Below are positions 4,832-21,369 of a stretch of DNA of 38,351 nucleotides, one piece after another. Numbering within the stretch: the first letter of the stretch is position 1; each line of letters starts with the position of its first letter. A program made the position numbers and the translations under genes. The stretch comes from Candidatus Rokubacteria bacterium GWA2_73_35 (GTDB lineage: Bacteria > Methylomirabilota > Methylomirabilia > Rokubacteriales > CSP1-6), in the NCBI GenBank assembly GCA_001790205.1, contig MGBU01000059.1, positions 1 through 38,351 of the forward strand. The letters run 5' to 3'. A model generated the notes under the pieces. That model was not told the origin of the DNA, searched no databases, and saw nothing but the letters and a program-made list of their open reading frames with translations.

Positions 4832-7566
<2,735 letters not shown>

Positions 7567-7669
7567 AATTGGGCTAGAGTTTTACATACTTAGGGGCCAC
7601 AGACAAGAAGTGCCACGAGACATCGGGAGAGGGCGGCGCCCCGAGGGCCGCCCGCCCCCTCCCGCCGGG

Positions 7670-7924
7670 CTACTGCCTGGTCACGCCGAGCGCCTCGAGG
7701 CCCTCGTTCGCGGTCTTCACGGAGTCCGCGTGCTTCCCCTGCTTGTGGAGCGCCTCGGCCTGGTCGAGCTTGGCCCGGGCGCCCTTCACCTTGGCGTCGT
7801 TCGCGTCCATCTTCGCCGCGGCCTCCCGGCCCTGCTTGATCAGCTTCGGGCACTGAGAGGCGTACGCCGCGCCGGCGCCCAGCACGAGCGCCGCCGCCAC
7901 CACCGCCGCAGTCAGCTTCTTCAT
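7670..7924 (-). CDS. Small secreted hypothetical protein
   Basis: Starts MKKLTAAVVAAALVLGAGAAYA|SQ (signal peptide), with GGGGGTGAGAGG just upstream of the ATG at 7924. The mature part is Lys/Ala-rich and looks helical. No family recognised. Confidence 0.5.
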   Translation of the reverse strand: MKKLTAAVVAAALVLGAGAAYASQCPKLIKQGREAAAKMDANDAKVKGARAKLDQAEALHKQGKHADSVKTANEGLEALGVTRQ

Positions 7925-7962
7925 CCTCTCACCCCCTCGCCGAGCCATGGAGGCTCCCCCAG

Positions 7963-9792
7963 CTAACCGTCGGCGGGCGGCGCCGGTTCCACGGGCGCGG
8001 GGTGGAAGTGGGCGAAGATCCGCTGCGCCAGCTTCGGGGTGACCCTGGGCACCGCGGCCAGCTCGGCCACCGACGACTCGCGGACCCGCCGCGCCGAGCC
8101 GAGCGTCCGGAGCAGGCTCGTGCGGAGCGTCGGCCCGACCCCGGGAATCGCGTCGAGCTCGGACCGGAGGGTGCGCCGGGCGCGGAGCTTCTTGTGGTAG
8201 GTGATCGCGAAGCGGTGGGCCTCGTCGCGGATCCTCATGAGCGTGTGGAGCGCGGGCGAGGTCCGGTCGAGGACGAGCGGGTGCAGGCTCTCGCCCACGT
8301 AGACCTCCTCCTCACGCTTGGCGAGCGCGGCGACGGGGACCCAGTCGAGGCCGAGGTCGCCGAGCGCCTTGAGCCCGGCGTTGAGCTGGCCCCGTCCGCC
8401 GTCGATGAGGACGAGGTCCGGCAGCACGTCGCCGTGCTCGAGCGCCCGGGCGAAGCGCCGCCCGAGGACCTCCCGCAGGGCCGCGAAGTCGTCCGCGCCC
8501 GCGACGGTGCGGATGCGGAAGCGCTTGTAGTCGTCCTTCTTCATGCCGCCGTTCTCCCAGACGACCAGCGAGCCCACCTGCTCCGTGCCCTGGATGTTCG
8601 AGATGTCGTAGCCCTCGATCCGGTTCGGGGGCCCGGGCAGGCTGAGTGCCTGCGCCAGCTCCTCGAGCACGAGCTGCTGGCGATCGTCGCGCGAGAGCAG
8701 GTGGCTCTGGAGCGCGAGCGCCGCGTTCTCCTCGGCCATCGCGACGAACTGCCGGCGGGCGCCCCGCTGGGGGGCCGTGAGCTGGACGCGGCGCCCGGCG
8801 AGGCCCGTGAGCCACTCGGCGACCAGCTCGGCCTCGGGGATCGGCTCGGAGACGAGGATCTCCGGCGCGGGCGCGACCGCCTTGCCGTAGAACTGGCGCA
8901 CGAACGCCGACAGGATCTCGCCGTCGGACCAGCCGGCGACCTTGTCGAGGAAGAAGGGCTCCTGCCCGACGAGCCGGCCGCGGCGGACGAAGAACAGCTC
9001 GACGCAGGCGTCGCTCCCCTGCCGCACGACGCCGATCACGTCCTGGTCCAGCTCCTCGGTCGAGATGATCTTCTGGCGCTCCCGCACCTTGTTGAGCGAC
9101 TGGATCTGGTCGCGGAGCACCGCGGCGCGCTCGAACTTCAACTCGCCGGCGGCGGCCTCCATCTCCCTGGTCAGCGTCAGCGCGAGGTCCTCGTCCTTGC
9201 CCTCGAGGAATCGCCTGACGTCACGGACGGTCTTCGCGTAGCCCTCCCGGGTCTCCCAGCCGGTGCAGGGTGCGTTGCAGCGGTGGATGGCGTGCTGGAT
9301 GCACGGCCGCTCGAGGCGCCCGTCGATCGGGATCGAGCAGGTGCGCAGCGGGAAGAGCTGCCGGGCCAGGCGCAGCGTCTCGCGCATCGCCGTCGCGGGG
9401 TAGAACGGGCCGTAGTAGGTCGCGCCGTCGTCCTGGACGCGCCGCGCGACGACCAGCCGTGGGAACTCCTCGTCGGTCGTGAGCTTGAGGAACGGATAGT
9501 GCTTGTCGTCGCGCAGGATGATGTTGTAGCGGGGGCGGTGCCGGCGCACGAGGTTCGCCTCGAGCATGAGCGCCTCGAGCTCGTTGTCGGTCACCACGTA
9601 CTCGAGGTCGCGGATCTGCCGGACGAGCGCGTCGGTCTTGGGGTCCCGCGGGCGCGAGTCCTGGAAGTACGAGCGCACGCGGGTCCGGAGCGACGCGGCC
9701 TTGCCCACGTAGAGGACCTGCCGCTTGGCGTCGCGGTACAGGTAGACGCCGGGGCGGTCCGGCACGCGCGCGAGCTTCTCCGCGAGCGTCAT
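7963..9792 (-). CDS. uvrC: Excinuclease ABC subunit C
   Basis: 609 aa. GIY-YIG N-terminus ([15 protein letters not shown]) and C-terminal HhH region. The ATG overlaps the uvrB TGA (ATGA). Confidence 0.95.
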
Positions 9793-11771
9793 GCGAGCTG
9801 CCGCTTGCGGAGCGACCGGATCCGGTCGCGCAGCTCGGCCGCCTGCTCGAAGTCGAGCCGCCGCGCGGCCTCGCGCATCCGCCCCTCGAGCTCGCCGATA
9901 CGCCGGGCGAGCGCCGCGGGCGAGTCGAAGGTCTCGGCCGGCGCCTCCTCCACCGGCACCGTGTAGTAGTCGCGCTCGTACACCGTCTGGAGCAGCTCGC
10001 GGATGCTCGAGCGGATCGTCTCGGGCGTGATGCCGTGCTCGCGGTTGTACGCGGCCTGCAGCTCGCGCCGGCGCTCCGTCTCGCCGATGGCCGCGGCCAT
10101 CGAGTCGGTCACGCGGTCGGCGTACATGATCACTTGGCCGTTGACGTTGCGCGCGGCGCGGCCGGCGGTCTGGATCAGCGAGGTGGACGACCGGAGGTAG
10201 CCTTCCTTGTCCGCGTCCAGGATCGCGACGAGCGCGACCTCCGGGAGGTCGAGCCCCTCCCGGAGCAGGTTGATGCCGATCAGGCAGTCGAACTTGCCGA
10301 GCCGGAGGTCGCGGATGATCGCCACGCGGTCGAGCGTGTCGATGTCCGAGTGCAGATACCGCACGCGGAGCCCGACCTGCTGGTAGTACTCGGTGAGGTC
10401 CTCGGCCATGCGCTTGGTGAGCGTCGTCACGAGCACGCGCTCCTCGCGCTCGGCGCGCGCCCGGACCTCGGCGAGCAGGTCGTCCACCTGCTCCTTCGCG
10501 GGCCGCACGCTAATCTTCGGGTCCGTGAGGCCGGTGGGACGGATCACCTGCTCGGCGACGGCGTCGCCGGCCAGCCCCAGCTCGTACTCGCTCGGCGTCG
10601 CCGAGACGTAGACCGTCTGGCCCGTCGCGCGCGTGAACTCCTCGAAGGTCAGCGGCCGGTTGTCGAAGGCCGAGGGCATCCGGAAGCCATACTCGACCAG
10701 CGCCTCCTTGCGCGAGCGGTCGCCGTAGTACATGCCGCGGATCTGGGGCACCGCGACGTGACTCTCGTCGATGACGATCAGCGCGTCCTTCGGCAGGTAG
10801 TCGATGAGCGTCGGTGGCGGCTCGCCCGGCCGGCGACCCGTGAGGTGGCGCGAGTAGTTCTCGATCCCGTGGCAGAAGCCGAGCTCGCGGAGCATCTCCA
10901 TGTCGAAGAGCGTACGCTGCTCGAGCCGCTGGGCCTCGAGGAGGCGGGTGCGCTGGCGGAGGAACCGGAGCCGGTCCTCCAGCTCCTCCTGGATCGTCGC
11001 GAGCGCGCGCTCCAGCTGCCCCGCCTCGGTGACGTAGTGGCTCGCCGGGTAGATGTGGACCCGCTCGACGCGCTCGATCGGCGCGCCCCGGAGAGGGTCG
11101 ATCCGCGACATCGCGTCGACGACATCGCCGAACAGCTCCACCCGGAGGGCGACCGTCTCCTCGTTCGCCGGGAAGATCTCGACCACGTCGCCGCGGACCC
11201 GGAACGTGCCGCGGTGGAAGTCGTAGTCGTTCCGCTCGTACTGCACCGCGATCAGCCGGCGGATGATCTCGTCGCGGTCGATCCGGTCGCCCTGCGCGAG
11301 CTCCAGGTGGAGTCCCTGATAGGTGTCGGGCTCGCCGATGCCGTAGATGCACGAGACCGAGGCGACCACGAGCACGTCGCGACGCTCCAGCAGCGACTTC
11401 GTCGCCGAGTGGCGCATCCGGTCGATCTCGTCGTTCACGAGCGCGTCCTTCTCGATGTACGTGTCGGACTGCGGGATGTACGCCTCGGGCTGGTAGTAGT
11501 CGTAGTACGAGACGAAGTACTCGACCGCGTGGCCGGGGAAGAACGCCTTGAACTCGCCGAAGAGCTGCGCGGCGAGCGTCTTGTTCGGCGAGATGACCAG
11601 CGTCGGACGGCCCGCCTCGGCCACCACGTTGGCGATCGAGTAGGTCTTGCCGGAGCCGGTCACGCCGCGCAGCACCATGTGGCGCCGGCCGTCGCGGACG
11701 AAGCGGGCGAGCGCGGCGATGGCCTGCGGCTGGTCGCCGCGGGGCGCGTACTCCGAGGAGAGCCGGAACAC
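9789..11771 (-). CDS. uvrB: Excinuclease ABC subunit B
   Basis: I use the in-frame GTG at 11771, giving 660 aa beginning (M)[17 protein letters not shown], the canonical UvrB N-terminus. Walker A GSGKT and helicase motifs are present. The longer ATG at 11966 would overlap the HNH gene with an Arg/Pro-rich extension. Confidence 0.9.
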
Positions 11772-11785
11772 GGCTCGGGGCGGCG

Positions 11786-12316
11786 TCAGGACGGGGTCGG
11801 GACCGCGATCAGGTACTTGCGCCAGGAGTCCAGCAGCGAGCTCGCGTGCGGGTGGCGGAGCATGTGCGTGGAGAAGACGAACTTCGGGTGCACCGGCTCG
11901 CGGATCAGGCGCATCCCGACCTCGTCCGGCAGCCGGCTGCCCTTCCTGAGGTTGCAGCGCAGGCACGCGGCGACGACGTTGACCCAGGTCGTCTCCCCGC
12001 CGCGCGAGCGCGGCACGACGTGGTCCACCGTGAGCCGCTCGCCGCGCCGGTTGCAGTACTGGCAGGTGTAGCCGTCGCGGCGCAGGATGTTCTTCTTGTT
12101 GAACGCGACCCGGTCGAGGAACGGCTTGCGGATGTAGATCGCCAGGCGGATCACGGCGGGGAGCGCGAACGTCACCGACGGCGACCGCACCACACGCGGG
12201 GAGGCCTCGACGGCTTCGGCCTTGCCGGCGAGGAGGAGCGTGATGGCGCGGCGGGCGTTGGTGAAATGCAACGGCTCAAAGGTGTAATTGAGCACCAGTA
12301 CCGCGATCTCATCCAT
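11786..12316 (-). CDS. HNH endonuclease family protein
   Basis: 176 aa containing [42 protein letters not shown] (an HNH/zinc motif with paired Cys). Confidence 0.8.
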
Positions 12317-17307: not shown

Positions 17308-20300
17308 TCAGCATTCGTTGAAGCCGCACGACAGGCACTTCTTGCAGCCCTCCTCGTAGACGAAGGTCGCCTGGCCGCACTCCTTGCACAGGTCGCCGAT
17401 CCGCTTGCGGGCCTCGCCACCGCCGGGCGGCAGCCCGCTCGCCGGCTTCACCTGACCGGTGTGCTCGGCCAGCGTGCGCGCGAGCGCGTCCGGAAGCGAC
17501 AGGGTCTTGGCCGGCCCGAACCCCGTCGGCTGGCCGCCGCCAATGCGCGTGAGCTGGCTGATGACCTCTTCGAGTCGGCGCTGAGCCGACAGGTGCGAAG
17601 GGAGCCTCAGCGTGAGCGAAATCAAGCGGCCCAGCGCCTCGGCCACCGCCATCGTGTCCGAGCCCCCCTTGCCCACCTGGACGAACACCTCGAAGGGCTC
17701 CCCGTCGGGCGTCTCGTTGACCGTGATGAACGCGGTCCCGATGGGCGTCTCGGTCCGGTAGGTCGAGCCCGTGAGGCTCTTCGGCCGCGGGCGGATGACC
17801 GCCTGCCCGGTCGCGGCCGCCCCGGCGGCCTGGGCCTCCTTCTTGGCGCCCACGCCGACGTTCAGCACCTGCTCGCCCTTGCAGCCGTCGCGGAAAACGG
17901 TGATGCCGAGGCACCCGAGCTCCCACGCCAAGCGGTAGGCCTGGGCGACGTCCTCCTCGGTCGCGCCGTTCGCCAGGTTGATCGTCTTGGAGACGCCGTT
18001 GTCCGTGTAGCGCTGGAAGGCCGCCTGATGGCGGACGTGCCACTCGAAGGCGATCTCGTGCGACGTCTTGAACACCCGCGCGGCCCGCTCGGGCGCGCCG
18101 GGGATCCCGTGGAGGGCGCCGCGCCGGGCGATCTCCTGCATGAGCGCGTCGGAGTAGAAGCCCTGTTCCTTGGCGATGCGCTCGAAGGTCTCGTTGACGA
18201 ACGTGAGCACCCGCTCACCGTCCGGCTGCTTGACCCGGTGCTCGAAGGCAAGGGCGAAGATCGGCTCGACCCCGGACGAGCAGCCCGCGATCATCGAGAT
18301 CGTCCCGGTCGGCGCGATCGTCGTGACGGTCGAGTTCCGCATCGGCCGGTCGTTCCGGTAGATCGAGTGGCTCCAGTTCGGGAACGGCCCGCGCTCCTCG
18401 GCGAGCTTGGCCGACTGGTCGTGGGACTTCTCCTTCACGAACGCCATGAGGCGGTCGGCCAGGTCGATCGCCTCCTGGCTGTCGTAGGGGATGCCGAGCG
18501 TGAAGAGGAGATCGGCCCAGCCCATGATGCCGAGGCCGATGCGCCGGTTGGCCTTCACGGTGGCGTCGATCTCGGGCAGCGGGTACGGGTTCATCTCGAT
18601 GACGTCGTCCAGGAAGCGCACGCCGAGCCGCACCACGCGCTCCATCTCCTCCCAGTCGATGCTCCACTCGCCGTCCTCGCCCCGGCGGGCGAACTTGGAG
18701 ACGTTGAGCGAGCCGAGGTTGCAGGCCTCGTTCGGCAAGAGCGGTTGTTCACCGCACCCTCTGGACACATACCCATCGGTAAGCCAGGTGTCCGTTTCCG
18801 GCTCATAGAGATCGTACGTCGTCGCGGTTCCCGCGGGCTCGACGCCCAGGATCTTCGCACTGCCCGGCACCCCGGCGTGGAGGGTCTGGACCTCGTCACC
18901 GACCTTGCACCGATCCAATCGGAGCGGCGCAAAACCACAACCCTCCCGAGAGACGTAAAACTGATGACCGGCGGTCGCCCGGACAGCCCCGCCGTCCGAG
19001 AACCGCACGTCAAAGATGGGGGTATCCGAGTAGACTTCGACCCGCTCGACCCGACGCGGCCCCTTGACGGTCGTGATGAGATCGCCTGGGCGCACACCAT
19101 CGACGCGGCGTGGCCCCGCCGGGGTCGCCACCATGGTGTCGCCGGTAACGCACGGATTCGTCGCCTCGACCATGCCGATCTCGGGCGTCGGGTTCGCCGG
19201 GCTCGCGTTGATCCGGTCGATGAACACCATGCCCGGGTCGCCCGTCCGCCACGCCGCCCGCACGATCCGCTCGAAGACCTCCCGCGCCGACAGGCGCTCG
19301 ACGACCTGCCCCGAGTGAGGGTTGACCAGGTCGTACTCGGCGCCCGCCGCGAGCGCGTCCATGAACGCGTCGGTGGCGGCCACGGAGATGTTGAAGTTCG
19401 TGATGCCCCCGTCGAGCTTGCAGTCGATGAACTCGAGGATGTCGGGGTGATCGACCTTCAGGATGCCCATGTTCGCGCCGCGGCGCGTCCCGCCCTGCTT
19501 GACGGCCTCGGTGGCGCTGTTGAACACGCGCAGGAAGGAGACCGGCCCGGAGGCGCGGCCGCCCGTCGAGGCGACGATGTCGTCCTTCGGACGGAGGCGG
19601 GAGAAGGCGAACCCGGTGTTGTGAACGAACGCCATGCCGTGCGTTCCCGCGGCATACGTGTTCCATCCCTCGACGGAGAGGTCGTAGAAGGCCTTGGGCG
19701 CCGGTGCCCGGCGGACGGCTGCGATCTCCAAGCCACGGGTCGCCGCGCGCCGCAGCAGCCGTCCGAGACCGGCGTCGCGTGATGCGACCGTGTCCGCGAT
19801 CGCGAGCAGATCATCACGGCGGCACCGCCGGTTCTGATTGCACGACCACCGGCTCAGCTCTGCATGGCATGGGCCGGCGCCGTGACGAGACGATCCGATC
19901 ATACCGAGACCCCTGAGGCGATCGCGCCACGCGCGGAACGGCAGCCGAAGCGCGGTCTGCTTCCGGCTCGCCGACGTGAGCCGGACCCGCTTGTGCTCGC
20001 TCGCGACGTACGCTTCGATGTCGCCTCGCAGGTCATCCACCTGCGGGAGGGTGCAAAGCTGGACGTTGTGGATCGGCCGCTTCCCCCTCCTGTGGGGTGG
20101 CTTCACCGTCAGCGAGGGCTGATACCCGAGGAGGCTCATCAACCCCGCCAGGTCCTCAGCCATTTCACGGCTGGCCGTCGCGTAGGAAGGGCTGCCGTCG
20201 GGGGCCACGTACCCGTCGCTGTCGAGGAGGCCGGCCACGAAGGCGCGGACCACCGGCAGCGGCGACTTCGCGATGACCTCGGGGACGCGCACCCGCTCGT

Positions 20301-21369
20301 CTTTGGCGCCGACCTTCTGGAGCCCGCAGGCCTCGAGCATGTCGAGCACGAAGCGCTGGGTGAGGGTCGCGACACTGAGCAGGCCACGGCGGTCTTGCTG
20401 CATCGAGACGTTGATGCCGCACCCTGCCAGGACCGCCCGGACCTTGTCGAGTACGTCCGGCTCGCCGGAGAACCAGCGGAGCCGGTACTGGCGGAGCGCA
20501 GGAACGTACCCGAAGGAGCCATCGCCGAGGGTGAACCCGACGAGCCACCCGATGGATTCATCGATGACCAGGCTCCCGGACCGCTGGCGGGTCGTGTGTG
20601 GCCAGTAGCCGTCGGGGCGATCAGGGGCCAGGATGATGTCGCCGGCCGCCAGGTCGTCCGCGCGCACCTCCACGAGACCCTCCGGTCGCACGACCATGAA
20701 GGGATGCCACGCGCTCGTCTGGACCCGCGTGCCGTCGCGGGTCTCGACGAGCACTTGCGAGGCGGCCGGGACCTCGAATCGCCAGACGTGAGTCACATGA
20801 CGAAGTCCCGTCTGCCCAGTCTTCGGATCCATCGAGGCCGTGTTGATGTTCAGATCGCTCACGTCGAAGGCCACGCCCGCGCCATGCTGCGCGCCCGGTC
20901 GGCCGTCGGCCGTCGCTCGATTGACGAGAACCTCGATAGGCTCGAGACCGCAGAACGTGGTCCAGACCCGTGTATCTCCCGAGATACATCCCCCGCCGGA
21001 CTTATGAATGATCGCCGCGGCCTTGACGGAGTCGAAGATCTCCTCCATCGAGTCGCCGACGGGCAGCACGTAGCAGGCGGAGTACTGGAGCCCGTTGCCC
21101 TTCCCGGCGTTCATGAGGGTCGGCGAGTTCGGCAGGAAGTAGCCGTCCACCATGATGTCGTAGAAGGCGCTCGCGATCTCGCGCACCGCGGCCTGGCTCC
21201 GCCCGTACCGCGCCTCGCCCGCCGCGATGGAGCCCGCCACCCGCCAGCACATCTCCTCCGGGGTCTCGACGACCTCGCCCCCCTCCCGCATCAGGTAGCG
21301 CTCCCGGAGCACGCGCAACGCGGGCTCGGTCCACTTGCCTACCTTCGACGGGCGAGTCTCAGACAGCAT
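17308..21369 (-). CDS. nrdJ: Class II (adenosylcobalamin-dependent) ribonucleotide reductase precursor with two inteins
   Basis: 1353-aa ORF. The extein motifs match NrdJ: HKSGGG|[14 protein letters not shown]|[16 protein letters not shown], and a C-terminal CxxC..CxxC tail. The predicted spliced product is 764 aa. Confidence 0.93.
18757..19152 (-). mobile_element. Mini-intein (132 aa) at the NP|CGE catalytic-loop site, with a non-canonical C-terminus
   Basis: It begins CVTGDTMV (block A) and has TAGH (block B TxxH). Block F/G reads [21 protein letters not shown], followed by CGEQ. It therefore ends in Arg-Gly rather than His-Asn. Confidence 0.8.
19618..20988 (-). mobile_element. Full-length intein (457 aa) with a LAGLIDADG homing-endonuclease domain at the GGG|TGF site
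   Basis: It begins CISGDTRV and ends GMAFVHN|T. The two LAGLIDADG motifs are [11 protein letters not shown] and [13 protein letters not shown] content and codon usage are visibly lower than in the flanking extein. Confidence 0.9.

Follow-up and report, generated by a model that had tools for sequence, protein, structure and literature searches.

A glycine-ended mini-intein at the thiyl-radical cysteine of a class II ribonucleotide reductase: a candidate for protein splicing without cyclisation of the last intein residue

Textbook and review schemes of protein splicing end with cyclisation of the last intein residue, which is Asn and rarely Gln, Asp or Glu, and in class 1 inteins the penultimate residue (G:6) is commonly, although not universally, His. 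Here we describe an insert of 132 amino acids (aa) in the ribonucleotide reductase (RNR) gene nrdJ of Candidatus Rokubacteria bacterium GWA2_73_35, located within a 38,351-nucleotide stretch (contig MGBU01000059.1; G+C 73.7%), the whole of which is referred to below as the window. The insert is a real intein that ends in Gly instead of Asn. Comparison with its relatives leads us to favour, with reasonable but far from complete confidence, a functional self-splicing mini-intein in which C-terminal cleavage proceeds via an Asp of block F rather than by cyclisation of the last residue.

The intein termini given in the 2010, 2014 and 2023 reviews and in the MEROPS lyase paper are only Asn, Gln, Asp and Glu, and the reviews agree with a first-pass annotation of this DNA (made from the sequence alone) in naming only cyclisable substitutes for Asn (Asn, Gln, Asp and Glu in PMC4031507; Asn, Gln and Asp in PMC10663303). 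Examples of the atypical termini Gln, Asp and Glu include the CIV RNR and Pab Pol II inteins (Amitai et al. 2004, as cited in PMC4031507); their last residue can still cyclise, to an anhydride or a glutarimide, whereas a terminal Gly cannot. In the canonical reaction the block F His (F:13) removes a proton from the terminal Asn and also stabilises the tetrahedral intermediate (2014 review in the Journal of Biological Chemistry, PMC4031507). Class 3 inteins with their WCT triplet (e.g. Mycobacteriophage Bethlehem DnaB, PMC2807308) have moved the step 1 nucleophile from Cys1 to a Cys at F:4, and are thus a conceptual precedent in which a catalytic nucleophile has been relocated into block F with splicing kept. 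They retain the C-terminal Asn, however, whereas the Gly-ended inteins retain Cys1 and the F:4 Asp and depart from the canonical scheme in step 3. Class 3 is defined by the lack of an N-terminal nucleophile and by the triplet itself, with Trp in block B, Cys at F:4 and Thr at G:5. The insert described here, which has Cys1, Asp114 at F:4 and Ser130 at G:5, contains no such triplet and is not a class 3 intein. Its HINT fold is also that of Hedgehog/Hog domains and of bacterial intein-like (BIL) domains, and the Hedgehog scissile bond is likewise Gly-Cys, but neither kind of domain occupies a conserved position in an essential enzyme or is related to homing endonuclease carriers, and both as a rule cleave without splicing. 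BIL domains lie in variable, non-conserved proteins and mostly have neither a +1 nucleophile nor a homing endonuclease; the insert interrupts the catalytic Cys of a conserved NrdJ, has Cys+1 and has LAGLIDADG-bearing relatives. Hedgehog/Hog domains are C-terminal Hint modules with a sterol- or adduct-recognition region behind them, and are cleaved at the N-terminal junction only, there being no C-extein; the insert is followed by a conserved RNR C-extein of 482 aa and resembles them in fold alone (1at0).

The nrdJ open reading frame (ORF) matches the Pfam families Ribonuc_red_lgN, Ribonuc_red_lgC and TSCPD and the NCBIfam models NF006417 (982.6 bits, cut-off 961) and TIGR02504, and the extein catalytic residues (SAC97..., N-P-C-G-E and NEAC) are all present. 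The gene, the insert and its key residues are listed here, with a caret for the splice junction and with conservation among the 97 Gly-ended inteins identified at this site (see below).

17308..21369, minus strand: nrdJ ORF, 1353 aa, a class II (adenosylcobalamin-dependent) RNR carrying two inteins (from the ORF list, Pfam and NCBIfam).
18757..19152, minus strand: Gly-ended mini-intein, 132 aa or 396 nt (aa 740-871), starting CVTGDTMV and ending DGYVSRG, inserted at ATNP(Pro739)^CGEQ, at the thiyl-radical Cys of the NPCGE loop.
19150..19152, minus strand: Cys1, the block A nucleophile, in 97/97.
19036..19038, minus strand: Glu39, a clade-specific acidic residue, Glu in 93-94/97 (two alignments), Tyr or Phe in most Asp- or Asn-ended same-site relatives.
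18964..18975, minus strand: block B TxxH (T60-A-G-H63), the canonical N-terminal acyl-shift residues, T in 93/97 and H in 96/97.
18811..18816, minus strand: block F Y113-D114, with the F:4 Asp114 in 97/97.
18784..18792, minus strand: D121-T-W123, with Asp at the block F His position (equivalent to F:13; residue -12), Asp121 in 97/97 and encoded by GAC or GAT.
18757..18765, minus strand: S130-R131-G132, the non-canonical block G end, with Gly invariant (GGG, GGC or GGA), the Arg position R75/Q15/V5 of 97, and position -3 S51/Q33/N12 of 97.
18745..18756, minus strand: start of the C-extein, C(+1)-G-E-Q, including the RNR thiyl-radical Cys and the catalytic Glu.

Both boundaries of the insert are fixed by an empty-site allele in a syntenic relative (L001), where the divergent OEP/RND/ABC genes upstream are the same as in the window and nrdJ is empty at both intein sites; the sole ambiguity is a TGCG duplicated in the DNA. 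The placement between ATNP and CGEQ in the first-pass annotation, with the Cys of NPCGE as the +1 residue, is therefore correct to the codon, with the junction reading AGA GGG TGC (Arg131 at 18760-18762, Gly132 at 18757-18759, Cys+1 at 18754-18756) and Cys1 encoded by TGC at 19150-19152. That annotation had also raised an alternative C-terminal boundary with a canonical Asn; none is compatible with the empty L001 site, which leaves only the duplicated Cys codon free, and a shifted parse (V...C, Gly at +1) lacks nucleophiles. A sequencing or assembly error at AGA GGG TGC is ruled out by the presence of the same end in 12 independent species-level genomes with synonymous codon differences.

The insertion point and the CVTGDTMV start are shared with canonical class 1 inteins at NP^CGE (L020 and L023, ending ...THSFIANGIVVHN^CGE; L019, L025 and L026, ending ...HN^CGE), as are Cys1, TxxH, the block F Asp, Cys+1, the HINT fold and an optional LAGLIDADG domain. 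The canonical inteins have His or Asn at -12 and a His-Asn end, whereas the window intein has Asp121, Arg131 and Gly132, together with Glu39 in place of their usual Tyr or Phe. Alignment to L020 and L023 (...EPxTHSFIANGIVVHN^CGE) equates Asp121 with the block F His, Arg131 with the penultimate His and Gly132 with the terminal Asn, the three substitutions that had been proposed from the sequence of the window. In terms of class 1 inteins, the insert thus has a conserved-site insertion with empty alleles, Cys1, TxxH, the F:4 Asp114, Cys+1 and a HINT fold, and the association with a nested homing endonuclease is found in its full-size relatives with LAGLIDADG motifs; the F:13 His, the G:6 His and a cyclisable G:7 residue are missing.

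Profile matches to the insert are below threshold, both for Pfam Hint_2 (21.3 versus 28.4 bits) and for NCBIfam intein_Nterm (18 bits, under the 24.5 cut-off). An AlphaFold2 model of the mini-intein with 10-aa flanks is all-beta with a mean pLDDT of 89.8 and a pTM of 0.83, and places a strand at residues 128-131; on this model the insert is confidently predicted to adopt a HINT fold. A Foldseek search of the PDB with the model returns the Ssp DnaB mini-intein, gp41-1 and Npu DnaB at probability 1.00 and TMq 0.74-0.79, followed by the class 3 DnaB, Mtu RecA and Mxe GyrA inteins, the BIL domain 2lwy (TMq 0.70) and the Hedgehog Hint domain 1at0 (TMq 0.75). A sequence-profile search of the PDB matches inteins throughout, none of them a Gly-ended clade member, and the best matches are the class 3 DnaB inteins 6rix and 6bs8. 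Kinship to the Pyrococcus RNR inteins, considered on account of a partial PRK08332 match, was rejected, as the match to PI-PfuI (1dq3) is weak (E 1.6e-07) and covers profile positions 43-320, short of the C-terminal block.

The insert had been noted as a single odd element, but is one member of a large family. An initial homolog search gave six matches, and the family emerged from a scan of one genome per GTDB species and an exhaustive search of representative proteins. The species scan yielded 12 full-length relatives (L006-L017; 47-78% identity) in Methylomirabilota/Rokubacteria, one Gemmatimonadales and two Anaerolineae, all located in nrdJ at ATNP^C and all ending ...TDTW[IL]TxGY[VI]SRG^CGEQ, and also a full-size version (L018) with a LAGLIDADG motif (LLGDGCYT) and the same end. 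The profile search of 1.84 billion representative proteins gave 3474 matches at E<1e-3, and among the best 150 of these the parsable inteins at the NP^CGE site mostly end x[RQ]G.

Pooling these sources gave 118 distinct inteins at NP^C...^CGE, five of which are mis-parses. Ninety-seven end in Gly, which provides the count of homologues by terminal residue that the first-pass annotation had proposed, and every one of the 97 has Asp at -12. The eight Asp-ended members all have Leu at this position (8/8), and in the eight with an Asn or Gln end it is occupied by His, Asn or Ser; the first-pass annotation had missed this joint pattern of Asp(-12) and Gly(-1). A neighbour-joining tree places the 97 Gly-ended inteins under a common ancestor that excludes every other member, and pairwise identities within the group have a minimum of 0.37 and a median of 0.56. 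Thirty-seven are minis and 58 are full-size (at least 300 aa); LAGLIDADG-type motifs (e.g. LLGDGCYT, LDGLxxTDG) are present in all ten full-size members that were read, and precomputed PF14528 matches are also listed.

The same C-terminal motif is present in 17 IMG/VR viral contigs (L035-L051; GC 26-60%, up to 340 kb), inside long intact RNR ORFs of the kind that also host the motif-bearing loci in Methylomirabilota, Gemmatimonadales and Anaerolineae, and the hosts of the clade range from viral contigs with 26% GC to bacteria with 74% GC. Members are named in the databases as 'LAGLIDADG family homing endonuclease, partial', 'hypothetical protein' or plain 'ribonucleotide reductase'. Cluster names and a second homolog search gave only entries from metagenome-assembled genomes (MAGs) or metagenomes and no cultured or named carrier, and the phage GenBank records checked contain no Gly-ended member; all carriers being MAGs, metagenomes or viral contigs, the clade may have been overlooked for that reason. 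The Gly-ended inteins at NP^CGE form a large, conserved and mobile clade of class II RNR inteins, one seemingly unrecognised until now.

The viral contigs carrying the motif are possible vectors for movement of the clade between phyla. In comparisons of the window with L006-L015, intein dS (0.9-3.2 or saturated) is consistently above the dS of the flanking extein in the same pairs (0.4-0.9), which suggests that the intein alleles predate the lineages of the host gene or have been exchanged independently of them.

Conservation within the clade is concentrated at a few positions. Besides the Gly end used for grouping, only Cys1, Asp114 and Asp121 are invariant in 97/97, and Thr60, His63, Gly13, Glu39, Tyr113, Trp123 and Gly127 are present in at least 95%; the mean fraction of the top residue per column is 0.49-0.61. 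The conservation of Cys1, TxxH and Asp114 indicates that the N-terminal catalytic apparatus of class 1 is intact, as the first-pass annotation had read from Cys1 and the TAGH of block B, and a specific alternative C-terminal constellation is equally conserved. Where dS could be estimated between the window and ten Rokubacteria or Gemmatimonadales loci, intein dN/dS is 0.07-0.22, about the same as in the flanking extein (0.03-0.20). The key residues are kept by different codons across 13 loci: Asp121 is GAC in seven and GAT in six, Gly132 is GGG in nine, GGC in three and GGA in one, Arg131 is AGA, CGA, CGG or CGC, and Ser130 is encoded by both TCN and AGC. A natural control is available in L001, where a free-standing copy of the intein outside nrdJ ends ...ETQTSIIDGYVCRR^CGE, with Asp replaced by Gln, Trp by Ser and Gly by Arg. 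A selfish element that bears homing-endonuclease motifs, sits on the radical Cys and has reached several bacterial phyla and viruses could hardly kill its RNR, and for this reason we consider it very likely that the 132-aa insert splices.

If so, the first two steps are expected to be canonical, since Cys1, Thr60, His63, Asp114 and Cys+1 are all kept: an N-to-S acyl shift at Cys1, aided by Thr60 and His63 of block B and Asp114 of block F, would be followed by passage of the N-extein to the thiol of Cys+1. Step 3 would then be cleavage between Gly132 and Cys+1 without side-chain cyclisation of the last residue. The residue at -12 is expected to lie next to the scissile bond, because the canonical His at F:13 acts directly on both the terminal Asn and the tetrahedral intermediate (PMC4031507). 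We propose that the catalytic group has been relocated to the block F position that normally holds the Asn-activating His, with the carboxylate of Asp121 filling the space freed by Gly132. It could act in either of two ways. Asp121 might attack the Gly132 carbonyl to form a transient inter-residue mixed anhydride that is hydrolysed later, comparable with the succinic anhydride that has been proposed for inteins ending in Asp, or it might activate water for direct hydrolysis, possibly with Glu39. A final S-to-N shift would join ATNP to CGEQ and restore the RNR finger loop. Glu39 is a candidate second catalytic carboxylate, and could pair with Asp121 in a protease-like manner.

The closest same-site relatives are informative in this respect. 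The Asp-ended inteins (P0092, P0097 and P0109; ...ETLTWITNGFISLD^CGE) share with the Gly-ended clade the insertion site, Trp at -10, Ser at -3 and a median identity of 49%, but they carry a carboxylate on the last residue and Leu at -12, whereas the Gly clade has the carboxylate at -12 and no side chain on the last residue. On the simplest reading of this pattern, the carboxylate would have shifted from the end of the intein into block F, and Gly would provide the space that it needs. Whether Asp121 itself drives step 3 is evenly poised on present evidence, and the chances are similarly balanced that the Gly-ended inteins constitute a fourth mechanistic class, in which the branched intermediate would be resolved without cyclisation of the last residue and the carboxylate would now be Asp121, possibly with Glu39; a more radical variant of this class would use a second N-to-S shift and yield a circular intein. 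The Gly-ended inteins probably finish splicing by chemistry that the searched reviews and papers do not describe. The first-pass annotation had offered an undescribed route as one of three outcomes, and the comparative data favour it, though indirectly.

Several points weigh against this interpretation. The covariation of Asp(-12) with Gly(-1) goes back to one clade and one evolutionary event, and as such represents joint conservation rather than repeated co-evolution. Attack of a carboxylate on an unactivated amide, or assisted hydrolysis of it, is demanding chemistry. No other RNR gene is present in the 38-kb window, the genome beyond which was outside the search. As regards newness, no description of Gly-ended inteins was found in the open-access full-text literature, with subscription-only papers being outside the scope of that search.

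Among the other explanations, a double N-to-S acyl shift is unlikely but deserves the most attention. Here Cys+1 would take the intein C-terminus onto its thiol, and the freed amine would attack the Cys1-bound N-extein thioester, forming the extein bond directly; the remaining intein-Gly thioester would be resolved by water or by Cys1 (the latter giving a head-to-tail circle), with Asp121 and Glu39 as acid/base catalysts. The Gly132-Cys+1 bond would thus act as a second junction of the N-terminal type, like the Gly-Cys of Hedgehog and of many intein N-junctions. In peptide chemistry few junctions undergo the N-to-S shift as readily as Gly-Cys, and the invariance of Gly before Cys+1 fits such a scheme. 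Hedgehog processing employs a Gly-Cys N-to-S shift (PMC3207474), both Cys1 and Cys+1 are invariant, and the predicted HINT fold would bring the two junctions together. However, the reversed order of steps is without precedent in inteins, the invariance of Cys+1 is uninformative since it is fixed by the RNR active site anyway, and the double shift does not account for the closest same-site relatives, whose Asp end and Leu at -12 point to a carboxylate-based step 3. Less probable again is attack on the Gly132 carbonyl by the side chain at -3 (Ser130; Gln or Asn elsewhere), with Asp121 as a mere general base. The residue at -3 is always polar and capable of acting as a nucleophile, the switching of Ser130 between the TCN and AGC codon families indicates selection for Ser, and in the modelled strand at 128-131 residues i and i+2 would face the same side. 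The kind of residue nevertheless varies at this position whereas Asp121 is invariant, an 11-membered cyclic transition state would be required, and Ser at -3 also occurs in the Asp-ended relatives and is thus not specific to the Gly end.

It is highly improbable that the intein is dead or decaying, with the branched intermediate stuck, NrdJ inactive and the cell dependent on another RNR, although all three canonical step 3 residues are missing and the genome beyond the window is unseen. The first-pass annotation had entertained both a reductase trapped unspliced and dead, and a decaying intein tolerated beside another RNR. Both are contradicted by the invariance of Gly and Asp121 throughout a 97-member clade diverged to 37% identity, by purifying selection on intein and extein alike, by synonymous variation of the key codons, by LAGLIDADG-bearing relatives, and by the presence of the motif in viral RNR genes. 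The extein catalytic residues are intact, a second and canonical intein is kept in the same gene, and the L001 copy, which is truly free of selection, has mutated exactly the Asp, the Trp and the Gly. We regard as equally improbable a need for a trans-acting factor (a host protease, a thiol cofactor or a partner Hint protein), or cleavage alone to give a two-piece reductase without autonomous ligation. Free-standing Hint ORFs derived from this intein do exist (in L001 beside nrdJ, in L004, and as P0129 and P0138), but they are rare and partly degenerate, and the broad range of host GC content argues for autonomy. Cleavage alone would leave the finger loop broken at the radical Cys, and such an enzyme is unlikely to be active.

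If splicing in this large, ancient and still mobile clade does proceed from a Gly end, cyclisation of the last residue is not obligatory, and the HINT fold can cut its C-terminal junction in another way. This would be the third catalytic rewiring among inteins, after classes 2 and 3. A compact 132-aa intein without Asn would avoid succinimide and iso-Asp by-products, and may allow separately controlled C-terminal cleavage or circularisation. Its position on the thiyl-radical Cys means that splicing would directly gate dNTP synthesis. The sub-threshold Hint_2 and intein N-terminal scores, together with the names in NCBI, imply that RNR genes of uncultured bacteria and viruses are mis-described.

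The second intein of the window nrdJ is of the classical kind, such that one gene hosts a classical and a Gly-ended intein side by side:

19618..20988, minus strand: intein 1, 457 aa (aa 128-584), CISGDTRVW...AFVHN^TGF, with a LAGLIDADG domain and a canonical His-Asn end; the empty site in L001 reads GGG^TGFAFS.

To judge from the length of the N-extein, intein 1 is seemingly present in L007, L010 and L017 and absent from L013, L014 and L016; its absence from L001 is seen directly. An extra intein is located 11-12 residues downstream of the NP^CGE site, at the second Cys of the active-site loop, in L009 (...PLLPNEAC^FAPGTRITT...) and P0171 (...LLSYEPC^FAPDTMITT...), from which it follows that there are two intein insertion points within about 12 residues of the RNR catalytic loop.

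The free-standing ORF of L001 (6001..6456; 151 aa) consists of the first 16 nrdJ codons (MLSETRRAKDDGWTEP), an intein copy with 65% identity, CGE and a TAG stop. It lies directly upstream of the intein-free nrdJ (6513..8858), which has a new ATG start with AGGAGG in front of it. The cassette comes after codon 16 (WTEP^), and two diverged versions of the nrdJ leader and 5' end are present. The identical ORF is found in three samples (L001-L003), and has the appearance of a decaying duplicate of the intein cassette at an ectopic position. A second free-standing copy, in L004 (669..1265; 198 aa; ...GATNR^CVTGDTRV...EGYVSRG^CGE, TAG), has the Asp...Gly motif intact and lies in an unrelated setting beside HEPN_AbiU2 and HepT-like genes. 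The DNA following the stop is similar in the two, TAG(G)CCGG(G)AGG, and suggests that both descend from one free-standing ancestor. Two more stand-alone relatives, P0129 and P0138, are short and degenerate.

In L005 (6001..6828; P0005) the nrdJ gene is broken up into four called ORFs, and ftsZ of that contig is likewise split. L005 is probably a frameshift-prone assembly and the apparent internal deletion of the P0005 intein (CVTGELVSGDSF...) an artefact, although its ...SDTWITEGYVSRG^CGEQ end is intact.

Other genes of the window include those for MurJ, HolA, LeuRS, UvrC, UvrB, an M48 peptidase and OEP/HlyD/MacB, and the following:

11789..12316, minus strand: HNH endonuclease ORF, 176 aa (PF01844, E 5e-15), directly upstream of uvrB, whose called ORF (9792..11966) it overlaps at the start by about 180 nt.

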